Positions 40,420 to 62,044 of a DNA stretch of 64,000 nt are shown piece by piece. Each line of letters starts with the position of its first letter. Within the stretch, counting starts at the first letter, position 1. The stretch spans positions 1-64,000 of the forward strand of contig JAMDHS010000043.1 of the NCBI GenBank assembly GCA_029717555.1, given 5' to 3'. A program made the position numbers and the translations under genes. The stretch comes from Peribolospora baueri (taxonomy: Eukaryota). The notes below the pieces were generated by a model that saw only the letters and a list, made by a program, of their open reading frames with translations, did no database searches and had not been told where the DNA came from.

Positions 40420-41830
40420 CACCCAGCTTTCATGCTTTCTACATTCAGGAACCCTACACTCGTCCCCACTTCCCAGTCGCAAACCATTCTACCCTAACTG
40501 GCGACCCTCCACGCCAACGGTCTACGCCCCGCCCTTCCGGACAAATGCACACTGGCGTAGGGTATGAGTCGTAGAGGCACAGCGGGCGCAGCGTGGAGTA
40601 GCTGTGCAGTGGTCATACACGTGGTCCATCGAGCAGCACCGGTAGCAGTGGCGAACCGAACGGCGCGCACAAGAGCACCGTACCCAACCGCAGAAACCTC
40701 CGCCACGCCCCCCATCGACGTCGACGGCTATACAGAGTACGAAGTGGACAAAGTCCTCGACTGGGGGTGGCAGAGGTTGTCTGCGGTGTCGGCGTTGTCA
40801 CATTGGCTGGCAGTATTCGGGGCGGTGGAGCCAGTGCCAGTGCCGTCAGGCGTGGCTGGGGTACTTGCGGAGGAGGTCGGAGTTGGTGGTGGAGACTCGA
40901 AGATAACGAGGATGGCGGTGAACCCGTCGCTAACCGGGAGTTGGACGGTCCGATCCATGGAGATCGAGCTCCAAGGAAGTTCGGGGATATCGACTGGCTT
41001 CGTTGTGCCTCGTAGGCTTGGACCGCACACATTCGTTGCAGGACCTGACGTAGTCCTGGACGTAACCCTTGATACCCGGCCATTAATACATTCTGGTGAC
41101 CAGAGTATACGTCCGTCGTTGGCCTCGATGCCCGGCTAGCTTCGCCTCGTGCCCGAATTCGAGTACTCGAAGCCGCAAGCCGTCTGCGTCTGGTACGTAG
41201 ACCTTGCCGTGCTTGAGCAAGACACCGACCCTCCGGCCCCGCCGTGGCAGCGTCGATCCCCAAGGTAGAAAGAAAGAGTCGCAGGAGACAAACGCGACCT
41301 AAACAGGCAGCAAGAAAAAGAGGCCTGCTCCCAGCATGGAAGACCTCCGCGATACCGGAAGCGCGCAACAGCAGCAACGCCCAATGGATGAAGGCCATAT
41401 ACCGTTCAACACAGGCTGTCTTTTCCTTGTCCTCTTCCGTGATGCGGATTTGCTAGTACCCCGACTTCAGGTCCAGGGAGGTGAGTGTGTCTTGCTTCGT
41501 TGAGCGTTTGATAACAATCATCGATCCGAATGAGCGGTTCCTTGTGACTGCGTTGAGTGCTCGGTAATCGATGCAGACCCGAATCTGGTTGTCCTTTTTC
41601 CTCGCCAGGGTGATCGGAGAGCCCCATGGAGAGCCGTTGGCTGGTTCGACGATTCCATCCTTCAAGTCTCCCTCTATGAAGCGTCGAATCGTCTCTTCTT
41701 CATCCACGGTTGGCCCAGGACGAGGTCGAACGTTGCGGGCGGGACTACGTCCTGGAGACAGGCCAGACAATCACCCCCGTCGGCAATTTGCATACCGCCA
41801 CCAAGACCGAGAGTGATCACGTCCACCGCC
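40420..41830. mobile_element. Fragmented Ty3/Gypsy (chromovirus-type) LTR-retrotransposon remnant
   Basis: Minus strand: protease tail FDLVLGQPW (~41700-41740); RT SPWGSPITLARKKDNQIRVCIDYRALN...LDLKSGY*QIRI (41389-41686); integrase HEAKLAGHRG..Y*WPGIKGYVQDYVRSCNECVRSK and PWSSISMD..VQLPVSDGFTAILVI (40895-41230). Plus strand: HPAFH..EPY (~40420-40460) and chromodomain start PPIDVDGYTEYEVDKVLD (40708-40764). Stops, deletions and frameshifts throughout. Confidence 0.9.
40522..40665 (-). mobile_element. Double CCHC zinc-knuckle fragment, LINE (Tad1-like) ORF1/gag type
   Basis: Translates RRSVRHCYRCCSMDHVYDHCTATPRCARCASTTHTLRQC: two CX2CX4HX4C knuckles five residues apart. Confidence 0.7.
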
Positions 41831-42593
41831 ACCTCGACGCCCTTCTTTCTTCTCTGCCCTCCGAAAACTCGCCGATTCTTCCCCGTAATAGTTCCAGTAG
41901 GCAAGCATAAAACCATAGATCATCACACATTGTATAAACATTCATACTCAAAAAAGTAGGCGCTCATAAACATTACCGTTAACATTCCCGTATTCATATG
42001 TAATATCAAAAGTATGGTGTAGGTCTCCATTCGTGACGTTCACACATCAACTGTGGAGTGCTTTGGGGCTCGATATCATACAGCTACGTCGTTGTCCAAA
42101 TGCCAGACCCTTCAATCGTCAAGGACTGACTACCTATCCAAAGTTCATCATGGCCATGTTTGCCGAACCTCGCTACGCCAAGAACATCAACTTCGCGCGA
42201 GGTCTTTCACGACCCCGGTGCGCCTAGCTAGCATCCAAAGAGACTTGTTTAGAACAACAGTCCGGAATACTGCCCACTAATGAGGCACGCGTGCGCATAG
42301 TTGAAGGTTTCTACTTAAGATAGATGTTTATGTTAATATCAACAGATCACGCGATAGATGATCGGCAAGCTCTGGCACGTGACAAAACAGCTGACTTACC
42401 GCGACGACTTGCGCTGACCCTTCGTGTTCTCCGCACTCGTTCTCAGCGACACGTCCCTCCAGCGACTGCACATGCCCCATCTCATCGCAGGTCTGGCCGG
42501 ATGTTTTGACAGATATTCACTTCATGCACGAGGTGGCCTACAACATGGTTCACATATTCCTCGGACTATGTAAACGCCTCGTACACCTCGGTG

Positions 42594-43203
42594 TCATGCG
42601 TTAGGAGACTCGTCCTTCCGCTTGTCGAAGCCATGAGGACGGAAGCCGTGGCGGAGGCTATCAAAACCTCCATCAAAGCCGCCGTCGAAGCCGAAACCTC
42701 CCAAGCCATCGCCGCCACGTTTGGCATTCTCCTCGACTTCCGCGTCGCGCTTGTAGAAGCCATCGCCGAAGCCGAAACCTTTGCCAAAGCCGAAGCCATC
42801 AAAGCCGCCATCGAATCCGCCACCACGCTCGACGGCGTTGGGTGCCTCGTCCTCCCGCAGCGGAACCCGAACCCTAGCTGCCGCTTGTCGAAGCCATGAG
42901 GACGGCGGCCGCGGAACTAGCCCTTCCGTCCTACTAGGCTCCAGAAACTCTCGCCATCGACGCGAACTCGGGGAAGACCAAACTCACATTGCCACTTCCA
43001 GCGCCGTAAGCCGCCAGATTCCCATACTGGCGCTTGGAGACGTCAAGGCCATCCGAGCCCGAACCGGCATCGCCCAAGGCCCAGCTGCGCCGCACAAGGG
43101 CGCTGTCATCACCTCGCTCTGCAGGGCCCTTCACGGGCGTGGCGCTCGCGGAGGCAGTGGGAAGCGCAAGAGCGACGAAGAAGGCCGTGCACCGCATGAT
43201 CAT
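42594..43203 (-). pseudogene. Secreted Gly/Phe-rich Kex2-processed repeat peptide precursor (KEP-like), with an apparent frameshift at ~42860
   Basis: Signal peptide MIMRCTAFFVALALPTASASATP; RR/KR-delimited blocks SWALGDAGSGSDGLDVSKR, QYGNLAAYGAGSGN/(intron 42987-42917)/FRGRRPHGFDKR, QLGFGFR; then in a shifted frame EDEAPNAVER GGGFDGGFDGFGFGKGFGFGDGFYKR DAEVEENAKR GGDGLGGFGFDGGFDGGFDSLRHGFRPHGFDKR KDESPNA*. TATATA at ~43363-43368. Confidence 0.75.
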
Positions 43204-43656
43204 TGTTGCGAGTTTCTGGGATAGGGGAGAGCGAAAAGAGTGGACTGCGCAAAGAGTGAGAGGTTCGTCTAAGGACAAGGTGTTGTCGATGCTGTTGTCG
43301 GTGTCGAAGTTCGTCAGCTGAAGAGATGGTGGAAGTCAGCCAGAACGCTCGGCGAGGAAGAGCTATATATCTTGCTGGCGAATCTTGCTGGCGAGCGCCG
43401 GCCTCGCGTGCTCCCAGGCGACCCCAGTGTAGATGGTGTCGGTCGACAACGTCAAGGGACGGGAAGGTGAGACAATTTTTGATGAGCCTGGCGTACAAGA
43501 TGAGAATACAAGATGAGAAAAAAGCACGGTCAGCTATTCAGCGGTAAGGTCGGTCATCCCAAAGCGCCAGTGGGGATCACAGGATTGACACGGGTAAGGC
43601 GGTCGGGTTCCACCAGCCCATACGATCCCACTTACCTCTCGAACATGAAGGGTCGA

Positions 43657-44240
43657 AACGCTTCATAGAGGAAGGCCTGAAGGATGGAATCATCGGACCG
43701 GCCAACGGCTCTCCATGGGGCTCTCCGATCACTCTGGCGAGAAAAAAAGACAACCAGATTCGGGTCTGCATCGATTACCGAGCGCTCAACGCAGTCACAA
43801 GGAAGAAAGTTCGGATCGACGATTGCTATCAAATGCTCAACGGAGCAAGATGCTTCACCTCCCTGGATCTGAAGTCGGGGTACTGGCAAGTTCGCATCAC
43901 GGAAGAGGACAAGGAAAAGACAGTCTTTGTCAATCGGTATATGGTCTTCATCGGATAGACTGGTAGCTTTCAGGAAGGCATGGGAACTTACCTGGGGTGG
44001 AGAGAAGTCGATGGCCTGGATAGTCTTGACCTGGTGTTGCGCTGCCAATTGATTAAGGGATTATGACGACGCAGCCGAGGTATCCCAAGGACAGGGTAGA
44101 AGGAAGGGCGTTGAGGATGAAGGGTTCTAGAAGGGAGACACCCTAAGGCTGATATTTTCTTGTCAACGTGAAGATGTTTTGCCCTTGGTATCTTGATAAA
44201 CAAACGTGAAAGGATCAGCCTATGTAGCGAAAGGAACAAG
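43657..44240. mobile_element. Second Gypsy remnant: RT fragment (+) and protease fragment (-)
   Basis: 43657-43950 (+): RFIEEGLKDGIIGPANGSPWGSPITLARKKDNQIRVCIDYRALNAVTR..RIDDCYQMLNGARCFTSLDLKSGYWQVRITEEDKEKT. ~44040-44100 (-): VLGIPRLRRHNPLINW (retroviral-type protease C-terminus). Confidence 0.88.
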
Positions 44241-45196: not shown

Positions 45197-46957
45197 TCAC
45201 TTCGCCTTGGCCTCGCGCTCCCTCTTGCGGAGGGCACGGCGGCGAATGTCCTGCAGCAGAGCTGTTGTATACAGGAAGGATCCACCCAACTCATCAGACG
45301 ACGATCGAGACGGGAATGATGCAGAGAAGATGGGATGGACGCCACCTTCCTGTACTCACCGTAATTGTAGGAAATGAGAGACGCCTTGCCCGCGTGACCG
45401 AGAGTCTCGATGAGCCAGTCGAGCAGCGCGTGGCTCCAGTAGGGCGTCGAGGTGAAAGGCCTGCCGACTGCGCCGCACGCGTTGCCGAGCGTGGAAAGGA
45501 CAGAGCGAACGTGGGCCGACGGTACGGGGATGAACAGTGACGGGCGACGGATCTTGGTCATGGCCGACACCTGCAAACCGTCGCGGTATGTCCATCACGT
45601 CAATTTCGAACCTGGGAAAAGGGCCGTTGACGGAGTAAATCACCCACCACAAAGTAAGTGTTGATGTTCCGCACGACGACGCCCTTGGGCTTCAGCTCTG
45701 CTCCCAGAGCCTGCGAGAAGATGGCGATGAAAGCCTTGGTGCCGGCGTAGGTGGCCAGGAAGGGGCTCGGCACGAGCGAAGCGAAGGAGCCCATGTTGAG
45801 GATGAGGCCGCGATGGCTGCACGAGTGTCCCGCATCACGTCCAAGACACCAGCGGAATGAACTAGGATCAGCTTCTGCTCGCACAACTCGATGGGGCGGT
45901 CGGAAACGCTCACTCACCGCTCCACCATGCCAGGAACGACGATTCTAGTGACGCGGAGCAAAGAGTTGACGTTGATCTCGACGATGTTGTCCATCTCGTC
46001 CACAGGGGTATCCTGGAAGGGCACTGGCATGTCGTGCGACTTTCCGACGTTGTTAACTGCGCATGTCCAATTCAAGAATTGCACACGATGAGCGAACGAA
46101 TGAAAGCTTTCCAATATTACGCTGATAAGAGACAACAGCACACTCACCAAGGACGCCAATGTCGAGATTGTTGACAGTGTCCGCAAGGGCGGAATACGCC
46201 GTGGGTTCGCCTTCGGCAAAGTCCATCGCATGCGTCTTGGTCTGAACCGAGTACTTCGCCTCTGTAACGGTGATGATGGACGCGGCCGAGACGCATTCAG
46301 TCTACGAAACTCTGGTTTTGACTCAGTGGGCGTAGCAGGACGTATACAAACCTATCTCTCCCGCAACCTTTCCAAGCTTCTCGGGGCTCCGGCTGACTAG
46401 GAAGATGTTGAATCCGGCCTTGGCGAGCTGAAGAGCGAACTCGCGCCCAATGCCATCCGTGGCTCCAGTCACGACTTTGGCAAAAACCGGGGCATCGCCA
46501 GGGAACACACGACGACAAGTCAGCCAGGCTGCAACACGGTCGGCTACAACGTCATGTAGTGCACACTCACGAGCCCAAGAGCCTTTTCCCGCGCCGAACT
46601 TCTTCAACTGTACACGACGGAGCCAATTGCGGCCCAGCACAGGATGGGGGAAAACGTCAGGCCAAGTCCCAGCCTCCTCCAAAATTACGGTGTACGAGGA
46701 AAACGCCGCCCACTTACGCTGTAGCCGGGAAAGATGAACAAGCCCAACACCATCCTAGCCCAACTCAACGCATAGCCGCCAACGACGGCAGCGCCGAGAG
46801 CAGCCAGAAGCAGCGTAGGCAGAGGCGCGTCTTCTGCGCGGCATGAGAAGGGCAAGATGCTAGGTGAATAGATCATGGTAAGACGACGTGGATGTGCTGG
46901 CACACCTCACTCACTGAGGCCGATCTGGTGGAGGATCTCCTGGAGCTGGGCCGACAT
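45197..46957 (-). CDS. IFA38: Very-long-chain 3-oxoacyl-CoA reductase (SDR family, Ifa38-like), multi-exon
   Basis: [81 protein letters not shown] (YxxxK); TPYWSHAL; C-terminus [17 protein letters not shown]. Confidence 0.92.
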
Positions 46958-59367: not shown

Positions 59368-62044
59368 ATGGACGACCTCCTCGATCTCGATTGGGACGCC
59401 TCGTCGAGCGTCAAGCCGCCAGCTCGCCCGGCCGACAGCGCGCCTTCATTCGACTTGCTTTCTTCTACCGCGCGATCCTTCAATACCCCCTCGCCCTCTC
59501 TGACACAACAGCAACAGCAACATCGACCGCCCAACACAGGCGCGCATAGAACTCCGGTTAGCCACGCTCCCAACTACTACTCTTCCTCTCAGCAACCGCA
59601 AAGTTCCGCCACTCAGGCAGCAGCTCCGCCGAGCGAGTCAGCAGACGCCTTCTCGTCCCTCCTATCGTTTTCTACCTCCTCTTCCGCCAACCTCAGCATG
59701 GCCGAGCGCCAAAAAGCTCTTTCCGAAGAAGCGAAACGCAAGGCGGAAAGGGAGAAGAACGAGCTCGAGGCGCTCTACGGTGGCACCAGTGGGGGAAGCT
59801 TCTGGGACAGCATGGGCGGCACCAACGGTGCCTCACAGACGCCGGGCTCGGCTCTCCCGCCAAATCCCTCTCGGCCGGCGAAGTCCTTGCAACCAGTGAA
59901 GCCACAATCCTCTCCTCTCGATTCTCCGTCGTACCCCACTCAGAATCTTGCCACGTTTTCCTCGGAGGGCACCGGTGGCCAACTAGCGGTTGCGGAGGGC
60001 GATCTCTTTGGCTCAGAGGCTCCCGTTACGACGGCGTCGGTTTCCACACCTTCTTTGGTCAGCGCTAGTGGCCAACTAGAGGTTGCAGAGGGTGATCTCT
60101 TTGGCTCAGAAGCTCCCATTACGACGGCGGCAGTTTCCACGACTTCCTCAGCCAGCGCTACCGGCCAGGCAGAAAGGGAGAAGAACGAGCTCGATGCTCT
60201 GTATGGAGGCTCCAGTGCGGGAACCTTTTGGGACAGCATGGGCAGCACCGACGATGCGCTACCGGAACCGGACTCGTCTCTCCCCTCAAAGCCCTCTCGG
60301 CCGGCGAAATCCTCACAACCAATGAAGCCACAATCCTCTCCTCATCCGTTGTTACCCCCTCGGCGTCTTGCCACTTCTTCCTCGAAGAGAGCCGGTCACC
60401 AACGAACGGCTCCGGAGGACGATGCCTTTGGCTCAGAAACCCTTGTGACGACGGGGACGGCTTCCACTTCTTCCTCGACGAGCGCGGGTGGCAAGCTAGC
60501 GGCCAGGATGGGCGATCTCTTCGGCTCAAAGGGTTCCATGACGACGGCGGCGGTTTCCAAATCTTTGTCAAAGGGTGCCAATGGCCTGCTAGCGGCCGTA
60601 GAGGGGTATGTGGGCGGGTATATGGGCGATTTTTTCGGCTCAAAGGACTCTGTGCCAGAGGCGGCGGAATCGTCTTCCAGGGCCGCGACTCCTTCAAAGC
60701 GCCGACCTTACGTCTCCTCAGCCCGACATCGCGTGCCCCAAAGGACTGGCACGCCGTCCGCTTCTGCGTCCCAACCGGCGGTGTCGCCGTCCTCGCCCGA
60801 GCCGTCCCCACTCGAGTCGTCCCTTCTCGAGCCGTCCATGCTCGAGCCGTCCCCGCCCGAGCCGTCCCCGCCCACTCCGCCGCTCCCGATGCTTCAGCGC
60901 CAGCTTGTCGCCGCCTCTCCGTCCGCGCTCTCCGCCTCGCTGAGCCTGAAGGAGAAAGGCAACGCCGCTTTCAAACTAGGCTCATATGCCGATGCTGAAG
61001 TGGCCTACACCTCCGCCATCAATGCCCTTCCCGACGGCCACCTGCGCTTGGTCACACTATTCAACAACCGCGCAAACGCGCGGCTCAAGAACGGAGACCA
61101 CTCGGGCGCTGCGGCGGACGCTTCGGCAGCGTTGGGCATCATCGTCATCGCTCCCGAGTCGAGCGCCGAGCAGCCGACGTGGAACGAGAAGGACGAGGCG
61201 CCGCTGCCGTCGGGAGCTGAGTATGAGGACCTAAGTCTGCGGGACGCGTACGTCAAGGCGCTCAGCAGGCGGGCGATGGCGAGGGAGATGAGTGAGAAGT
61301 GGAGCCAGGCAGCCGAGGACTGGCAGAGGCTTCTCGACTCTGAAAGGGAGGCCGGTCGCGCGGCTGGCGCGGGGGCAAGGGGCGCGAGGGAGGGTAAAGC
61401 GAGGTGCGACAAGATGCTGGGTACCGGCGGAGCGTCCGCCTGTCTCCCTCCATTTTCCTCCTCCTCTTCTGCCGCTGCCGCGGCCGCGGCAACATCCTCT
61501 CGCCCCCGACCTCAGGCGCGACCGCCAGCACGGAGACCGGACCAGCCGGCGTCAACGGACTCTTCTGAAGCGGTCTCTGCCCTGCGCGCCACCGCTGCGG
61601 CAGCAGATGCGGAGGACAACCAGCGTCTCTCACTCAAGGACGGGGTGGACGCCAAGGTCAGCGCGTGGACGGCGGGCAAAGAAGGCAACTTGAGGGCGCT
61701 CATCGCGAGCTTTGACTCGGTCGCCTGGGAAGGTCTCGGGTGGAAAAAGGTGGGCATGCACGAGCTCGTCACTGACAAGCAGCTCAAGGTGCAATACACA
61801 AAGGCCATTTCAAGGTTGCATCCTGACAAGGTGAGCGGTCGAGCGATGGGAGAAGAGAGGTCACCAGCGATGCGACGGCAGCTCACGAAACTCGTTTGTA
61901 TATTTCCCCTTCCCCACCTGTCGCTGGGACGCCTCAACACGTGGCATCTCGCAGCTCAAGTCGAGCAACACTTCTCTGGAGCAACGGATGGTTGCGGCCG
62001 CCGCTTTCAGCGTGCTCAACGATGCGTGGAACGCGCAGAAATAG
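59368..62044 (+). CDS. SWA2: Auxilin-like clathrin-uncoating factor (Swa2-like): low-complexity N-terminus, TPRs, C-terminal J domain
   Basis: MDDLLDLDW start; DAFSSLL; TPR KEKGNAAFKLGSYADAEVAYTSAI...NNRANARLKNG; W..GKEGNLRALIAS...WKKVGMHELV...YTKAISRLHPDK; intron 61831-61954; last exon EQRMVAAAAFSVLNDAWNAQK*. Confidence 0.9.

Follow-up and report, generated by a model that had tools for sequence, protein, structure and literature searches.

The locus considered here raises the question of whether a Gly/Phe-rich frame on the minus strand of a 64,000-nucleotide stretch of Peribolospora baueri DNA (the window; contig C373 of the 22.7-Mb, 668-contig assembly that was searched) encodes a working Kex2-processed repeat protein (KEP), as an earlier note had proposed from the letters alone. 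The frame starts with an ATG at 43203 and ends with a TGA at 42596-42594. We read it as a broken, inverted and displaced member of a KEP family that is young and multicopy in its smut-lineage basidiomycete host, and the combination of a KEP family with a pseudogene copy in the window is highly probable. The features of the copy and its surroundings are collected in Table 1.

Table 1. Features of the Gly/Phe precursor copy and its surroundings (window positions)
Feature	Position	Strand	Remark
Inverted retroelement remnant: RT-like copy plus Integrase_H2C2	41086..41684	-	Integrase_H2C2 E 3.3e-4, below cut-off
Pieces of the array upstream spacer, downstream of the window copy, opposite orientation	41875..42508	+	
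Truncated spacer-like tail and stop	42594..42617	-	TGA at the matching place in paralogues C50B and C45
GF core 2 (31 aa, net -3) plus KR	42618..42716	-	second 24-nt unit inside
Acidic spacer type B (DAEVEENAKR)	42717..42746	-	
GF core 1 (24 aa, net -2) plus KR	42747..42824	-	
Acidic spacer type A (EDEAPNAVER)	42825..42854	-	non-canonical ER end
26-nt stretch private to the window copy	42855..42880	-	frame shifts across it; not in aligned paralogues
Short His-containing block ending in KR	42881..42916	-	resembles Gln/His blocks of C45 and C138
71-nt intron remnant	42917..42987	-	donor kept; lacks the branch site and pyrimidine tract seen in the C50A intron
Start of first Gln-initiated peptide, end of exon 1	42988..43029	-	family-variable cassette position
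Conserved pro-region with PAER, LVRR and VSKR sites	43030..43140	-	after codon 16 unchanged among five copies except for one in-frame indel
Probable signal peptide, about codons 1-21	43141..43203	-	hydropathy; presumed cleavage site
Upstream region common to the copies	43204..43475	-	TATA-like word 43371-43362; putative promoter
Reverse-transcriptase remnant	43548..43955	+	Pfam RVT_1 E 1.3e-7

The GF frame is not a product of chance, because its 90 residues contain 13 GF dipeptides, against at most 4 in every other six-frame segment of the 64 kb, and because its 3' part has 23 matches on 13 contigs of the genome. Exon 1 comprises 72 codons, from the ATG to a GTGAGT donor at 42987. The N-terminus has Arg at position 4, followed by a hydrophobic run (best 11-residue Kyte-Doolittle mean 2.09) and Ala-x-Ala; the N-terminal hydrophobic part forms a helix (4-19) in the structure model of paralogue C50B. 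After a CTAG ending at 42917 there is a short His-containing block closing in KR, then 26 nt (42880-42855). In the remaining 86 codons, spacer A precedes a 24-residue GF core and spacer B a 31-residue one, each core closed by KR; a 7-residue tail and the stop follow. The hydrophobic N-terminus, the ATG, the GTGAGT and the CTAG were all confirmed at these positions, and both GF-rich blocks and both acidic spacers are present. Its 24-nt unit is real and occurs twice, in the His block (42904-42881) and in GF core 2 (42641-42618), and the peptides it listed are encoded. The delimitation of the blocks by KR/RR stood in part only: the GGGFDGG block is preceded by AVER, so its release would need a non-canonical cut.

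The frame change suspected near 42860 is there. With the intron as first proposed, the frame leaves the GF repeats at 42880-42855, and these 26 nt are missing from all four paralogues aligned over the region; the first 23 of them have a single genome match at up to three mismatches. What had been taken for a second Gln-initiated block, as a family peptide, is this private stretch and the site of the frameshift. The intron at 42987-42917 had been called canonical, which is right for the donor but not for the 3' half, where neither a branch-site-like word nor a pyrimidine tract of the C50A type is present. In alignment with the 122-nt intron of C50A, the part holding the branch site and pyrimidine tract has been lost, and the 71 nt appear to be a remnant of that intron, which is complete in C50A. 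The branch-site pattern and the splice consensus words used here come from general background. No branch-site-like word was found in the window intron with a pattern that also missed the putative C128 intron, which is suggestive only of a non-canonical 3' half.

We considered whether the copy might be intact in the organism, the shift being an assembly error or bypassed by other splicing. Among the run contigs listed none was shown bridging 42855-42880, and 196 single-intron options open the frame, eight of them from a consensus donor. However, all eight use GAG or AAG acceptors, and none of the 196 combines a YAG acceptor with a branch-like word; no consensus splice alternative opens the frame. 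Moreover, the 26 letters are non-repetitive, occur once in the genome and lie inside a contig of more than 174 kb, and the gene is also inverted and sits amid retroelement remnants. An intact copy is improbable on this evidence. The lack of cover at 42914-43014 in the run contigs of X3 and X4 carries no evidential weight. As it stands the window copy does not itself encode a repeat protein, release of the listed peptides from it is not supported, and it is most likely a pseudogene, displaced and inverted.

Contigs of four public DNA runs (one study, two organism labels) contain family variants; the assembly may itself derive from two of the runs, which do not count as independent. The joint 42505/43475, on opposite strands, is present in run contigs of X1, X2 and X4, and the gene is inverted against pieces of its own upstream spacer. 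It is flanked by two retroelement remnants that are mutually inverted (43658-43952, within the reverse-transcriptase remnant, has an inverted copy, 89% identical, at 41387-41684). The 'retrotransposon graveyard' of the earlier note holds for a local patch at about 41.1-44.6 kb; the 87 frames of 39-46.5 kb gave one reverse-transcriptase match and one weak integrase-zinc match, but the 30 frames scanned elsewhere in the window gave ordinary genes (among them UTP20, cyclin, TPR and SDR). In contigs of organism label B (X3, X4) window position 43274 is joined to 43753, as if the same RT-flanked locus existed there with less upstream sequence; in other organism-B contigs Gln/His blocks follow VSKR immediately (a single study, contigs alone). 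A multi-exon short-chain dehydrogenase (SDR) gene lies at 45600-46754 (minus strand), about 2.4 kb upstream of the copy, and was not seen beside other family copies (119 of 176 listed neighbour frames scanned). Farther away, the window contains a 65-nt near-perfect palindrome at 2146-2210 (95%) and internal tandem duplications of about 90-430 nt (73-85%) at 59738-60605, within a 920-aa TPR-containing frame.

The intact paralogues that had been predicted were found. With the first 55 residues of the window copy, seven places in the genome matched; these probably stand for six genes, as there is an exact 70-nt overlap between C375 and C573. One gene, C50B, is complete, with 192 aa in a single exon. 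C50A is interrupted by a phase-0 intron that shows the donor, a CTGAC word, a pyrimidine tract and the final CTAG; its exon 2 remains in frame to the contig end. C138 has one exon and is likewise open to the contig end. In C45, also of one exon, a 1-nt gap occurs close to the 3' end, and C530 has a stop codon in its tail. Family members range from about 170 to 240 aa or more. C50A, C50B and C138 lie in a head-to-tail unit of approximately 2.65 kb (85-91% identity), and small contigs are collapsed repeat units joined through exact end overlaps; contig depth was not taken as copy number.

Several observations were made around these copies. The 27.8-kb contig C50 seems to carry family units at both ends, pointing outward, its right end (L039:9425-9823) being spacer sequence with 93% identity to window 41875-42270. 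Its array spacer contains a dispersed repeat of about 525 bp (L030:1806-2331) with matches of 259-523 nt on seven other contigs; no terminal inverted repeat was found in it, and it may have helped the array unit spread. In C128, a 94-nt GTGAGT...CAG interval (L033:135-228), in which no branch-like word was found, follows the last KR-Gln of the C138 copy, and the frame beyond it would give a poly-Gly peptide with an aromatic tail, which may be a last exon for another type of peptide. The 3' part of an ABC-transporter gene (C128, L033:1250-3079, minus strand) lies directly behind this C138/C128 copy, and the 127-mer at the transporter's end recurs on C75 and also where C45 begins, immediately before the C45 copy. 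A linkage of C45 to the array via C128 was dropped, because C75 has the same 127-nt end. Besides the ABC transporter, the genes next to the other copies (119 frames scanned of 176 listed) are of the housekeeping kind: shugoshin, HDAC, GH5, WD40, CPDase, JSN1 and HAT1.

The family layout consists of a probable signal peptide, a pro-region, a variable Gln-initiated peptide, and acidic spacers alternating with GF cores. Among five copies the pro-region shows no amino-acid change after codon 16, except for a 12-nt in-frame (4-residue) indel. The slot after VSKR contains a similar Gln peptide in C50A and the window copy, different ones in C50B, C45 and C138 (two in C138), and none in C573. There are 24 complete cores of 20-31 aa, 15 of them distinct. 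The distinct cores contain 174 Gly and 98 Phe in 374 residues (47% Gly, 26% Phe, 11% Asp), and 14 of the 15 end in GFY. Net charge is between -3 and +1 in the cores and between -2 and -4 in the spacers. Core GRAVY is -0.5 to 0.0, not hydrophobic overall; GGGF is present at most twice per core, and many cores carry GF(H/N)R. Phe directly follows Gly in 98 of 98 cases (0.49 in shuffles), a rule that is descriptive, since the cores duplicate one another and give no independent test of selection.

Three comparisons give modest evidence of constraint on the coding part, with a weak selection signal. Coding N-termini are 96.3-98.8% identical and differ in length by the 12-nt indel only; the upstream 230 nt are 91.7-95.6% identical, with indels of 1, 4, 9, 13 and 16 nt; and the changes in 54 codons are 6 non-synonymous per 118.7 sites vs. 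4 synonymous per 43.3 sites. By inspection (not with the KEP authors' pipelines), the 192 aa of C50B contain, bounded by KR sites, three GF units and an 8-mer present twice, and C50B falls inside the published definition of KEPs, which is given as at least three repeats of 8-100 aa between KR/KK/RK/RR sites in a protein of <800 aa (PMC7329392, PMC9769878). The KEP architecture proposed for this locus is supported by the paralogues. The AlphaFold model of C50B from a single sequence (mean pLDDT 51.7) was uninformative on its fold.

The proposal of a family without known homologues agreed with all the searches. No relative of C50B was found by the word-seeded protein search (0 of 8000 candidates scored, proteins of 105-336 aa), with its residues 1-58 (0 of 57 at E<=10, same protein sizes), by phmmer against 1.84 billion representative proteins (0 at E<=0.001) or by exact look-ups. 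Pfam gave no match at E<=1 for three paralogues, MF_alpha included, and among metagenome contigs 0 of 399 pattern matches were confirmed and the spacer DNA pattern gave 0. Low-complexity queries lose sensitivity, and distant GF-rich KEPs could escape such searches. No Gly/Phe-rich Kex2 repeat protein was found described in the open-access literature. Homology to Rep1 was not found either, with no match at E<=0.001 among the 1.84 billion representatives or in the word-seeded search.

The host is probably a member of Ustilaginomycotina, placed to subphylum. The closest named protein to a JSN1 fragment from C45 is that of Tilletiopsis washingtonensis (60%), and in the JSN1 tree (19 homologues chosen of 70) the host groups with Ustilaginomycotina with support 90/88. 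Hydrophobin matches are present at about five loci on four contigs of the genome, including C208 (two loci), C329, C646 and C472. At C208:1-1007 (L042) there is a Hum3-like frame, with Gly/Leu-rich repeats ending in Arg before Gln and then a hydrophobin domain.

In line with the earlier note, no UstYa/DUF3328 (PF11807) gene was found nearby: there was none in the 87 frames surrounding the window copy, nor in the 119 frames scanned, of 176 listed, at the C50, C128 and C45 copies. These observations bear on a dikaritin-type RiPP precursor, in which the Tyr-ending cores would be cyclised by tailoring enzymes encoded elsewhere. Tyr cross-links occur in dikaritins, the distinct cores nearly all have Tyr before KR, and an ABC-transporter gene adjoins the C138/C128 copy. 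On the other hand, a genome-wide search gave no PF11807 candidate (the control was blank too, and introns may hide the gene), no tailoring enzyme was found in the 119 neighbour frames, the SDR was the only metabolic-enzyme match among the 87 window-copy frames, and the cores are long and variable. Such a precursor is very improbable here.

Contig C659 contains a Kex2 gene (P-domain match E 1.5e-18, subtilisin catalytic exons and transmembrane tail). The residue after KR is Asp or Glu at the family spacers, in agreement with the P1'/P2' preference described for Kex2, which favours these residues there (PMC2515848). The AVER of spacer A lies within the extended Kex2 motif, in which Glu at P2 and Ala/Pro at P4 are reported as tolerated (PMC8528282). 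If AVER were left uncut, the products would be acidic-headed peptides of 30-39 residues, and if the protein were barely processed it could be an intact disordered wall or matrix protein. ER rather than KR ends 19 of the 27 spacer units counted (tiny contigs overlap, so that the units are not independent), and predicted sites left uncleaved have been reported (PMC2515848). However, the ER of spacer A stands where spacer B has KR, ER recurs as PVER/PAER after the signal peptide, and the extended motif accommodates it. We consider poor processing to have only a small chance of being correct.

A signalling or host-directed role, in which the variable Gln peptide would be the message and the GF cores carriers or decoys, is quite unlikely. 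The best cluster by features in the Atlas was the alpha-factor precursor (0.80, recognition below threshold, later no usable match, and hence a lead only), the cassette after VSKR varies between copies, and the Kex2-type repeat proteins Hum3 and Rsp1 of U. maydis are reported to have in planta roles (PMC4617103). By contrast, no STE13-type XA/XP dipeptide run (as defined in PMC6339444) follows KR: the spacers begin ED-EA-P and DA-EV, so that spacer A starts with ED and spacer B has one DA and then EV. In addition, long low-complexity cores take up most of the coding capacity, and the Gln peptide is missing in C573.

We give even chances to the explanation that we prefer, in which KEP processing of the intact copies yields surface-associating Gly/Phe peptides. 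Precursors would enter the secretory pathway, Kex2 would cut after KR/RR and probably after (A/P)xER, and Kex1 would trim the basic residues, as in established KEP processing. Processing would give a variable peptide starting with Gln, which probably becomes pyroglutamate, acidic 8-mers of two kinds, to be discarded, and several Gly/Phe peptides that are linear, near-neutral and 20-31 residues long. In the basidiomycete Coprinopsis, KEP peptides that start with Gln are reported to carry pyroglutamate (PMC9769878). The acidic spacers would keep the precursor soluble, and the freed cores would associate via Phe, coating the cell surface with fibrils or a gel, or acting there as an adhesive. The amount of secreted peptide would be amplified at two levels, by repeats per gene and by genes per array.

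Surface assembly of the cores, taken separately and argued by analogy, has slightly less than an even chance. It is suggested by the Rep1 repellents, a precedent from the same subphylum (PMC3133707, PMC4617103), by the reversible fibrils and hydrogels described for Gly-rich aromatic low-complexity segments (PMC8551513), and by the presence of Phe at about every fourth residue, set in Gly. Our best guess is that the cores would act like the Rep1 repellents, without relation to Rep1. Against surface assembly, the cores are hydrophilic on average and shorter than the Rep1 peptides (34-53 aa), and a surface-coating role may already be filled, since the genome has hydrophobin matches, one of them Hum3-like. 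The weak selection signal and the lesions in at least two other copies (C45 and C530) count against the preferred explanation as a whole, and so does the report that deletion of kep genes in Coprinopsis gave no phenotype (PMC9769878).

A further proposal is that of a protease-triggered secreted glue, in which the acidic spacers would hold a Gly-Phe sticker-and-spacer polymer in solution until its release by Kex2, after which the cores would condense into an extracellular, reversible kinked-beta hydrogel or coacervate that serves adhesion or surface coating. This is unlikely; if true, the smut lineage would have a second repellent chemistry of independent origin, adjustable through repeat number and exchange of the pyroglutamyl cassette, and the cores would be peptide-sized equivalents, outside the cell, of FG/LARKS low-complexity domains. 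Rather unlikely, too, is a role of the cores as linear Gly-rich antimicrobial or competitor-deterrent peptides, convergent with the armadillidins of isopods, with the variable Gln peptide diversifying the mixture. The conserved pre-pro region with a variable peptide and the amplification in tandem copies would fit such a role. So would the composition, as armadillidin H is described as having a GGGF(H/N)(R/S) motif six times over and contents of 47% Gly and 13% Phe (PMC5031766), compared to the Gly and Phe contents and the many GF(H/N)R of the cores. However, armadillidin H has a net charge of +7 and a pI of 12 (PMC5031766), against a net charge of -3 to +1 in the cores, no sequence homology was found, and the literature presents armadillidins as single peptides, each with one motif array (PMC7017220), and not as spacer-separated cores.

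The window copy alone is of little importance. Most KEP peptides are without known function, and this family stands out by an unusually simple chemistry (Gly, Phe, Asp, Arg), with 15 natural variants of the core. Self-assembly of the cores would mean that surface peptides arose at least twice in smut-lineage fungi, and would supply short natural gel-forming sequences; antimicrobial cores would be near-neutral counterparts of cationic Gly-rich peptides. The family also illustrates the birth and death of KEP genes, through tandem amplification, cassette swapping, intron presence and absence, and a displaced dead copy.

Compared with known systems, the architecture is no surprise, because KEPs are abundant, often orphan and sometimes multicopy per strain: Umemura 2020 (PMC7329392) counted 7878 KEPs, spread over 1345 of 1461 strains; 2560 had no homologue, and some multicopy types were specific to one strain. 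The family shares with described KEPs (PMC6339444, PMC7329392, PMC9769878) the signal peptide (probable in the present family), the pro-region, the KR-separated repeats and the Gln-initiated peptides, as well as a lineage-restricted multicopy occurrence without DUF3328. It differs from them in that no sequence relative was detected, in its two alternating acidic spacers, one closed by monobasic ER, in cores that are about three-quarters Gly plus Phe, and in a variable Gln cassette before homogeneous cores. What is notable is the Gly-Phe chemistry, the alternating spacers and the variable cassette.

With Rep1 (and Hum3 and Rsp1) the family has in common probably the subphylum, the absence of an STE13 signature and, as predicted here, a secreted precursor cut by Kex2 into linear peptides; self-assembly at the surface is also shared as a proposal, made for the present family by analogy. 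Rep1, however, is one 652-aa gene product with 12 amphipathic repeats of 34-55 aa, whereas here there are about six genes for much smaller precursors, with shorter Gly/Phe cores, separate acidic spacers and no homology found. Armadillidins are alike in their 47% Gly, their Phe content, the GGGF and GF(H/N)R-like motifs, their linearity and, in the cores, the lack of Cys. Armadillidin H is strongly cationic and has six motifs, but the cores are neutral to anionic, Asp-rich, poorer in GGGF and many per precursor, and the likeness is compositional only. LARKS domains (FUS, hnRNPA2 and TDP-43; PMC8551513) resemble the cores in their Gly-spaced aromatics, which could in principle make kinked, reversible cross-beta contacts; these examples are intracellular RNA-binding protein domains, while the cores would be free secreted peptides after proteolysis. 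Dikaritins of the ustiloxin and asperipin-2a types also have KR-delimited repeats with acidic flanks and Tyr in the core, and the present family departs from them in its long variable cores, its basidiomycete host and the lack of any UstYa/DUF3328 or tailoring gene among the frames searched. Set beside these systems, what the window presents through a broken copy is a real gene family, in all likelihood a lineage-restricted addition to the KEPs.
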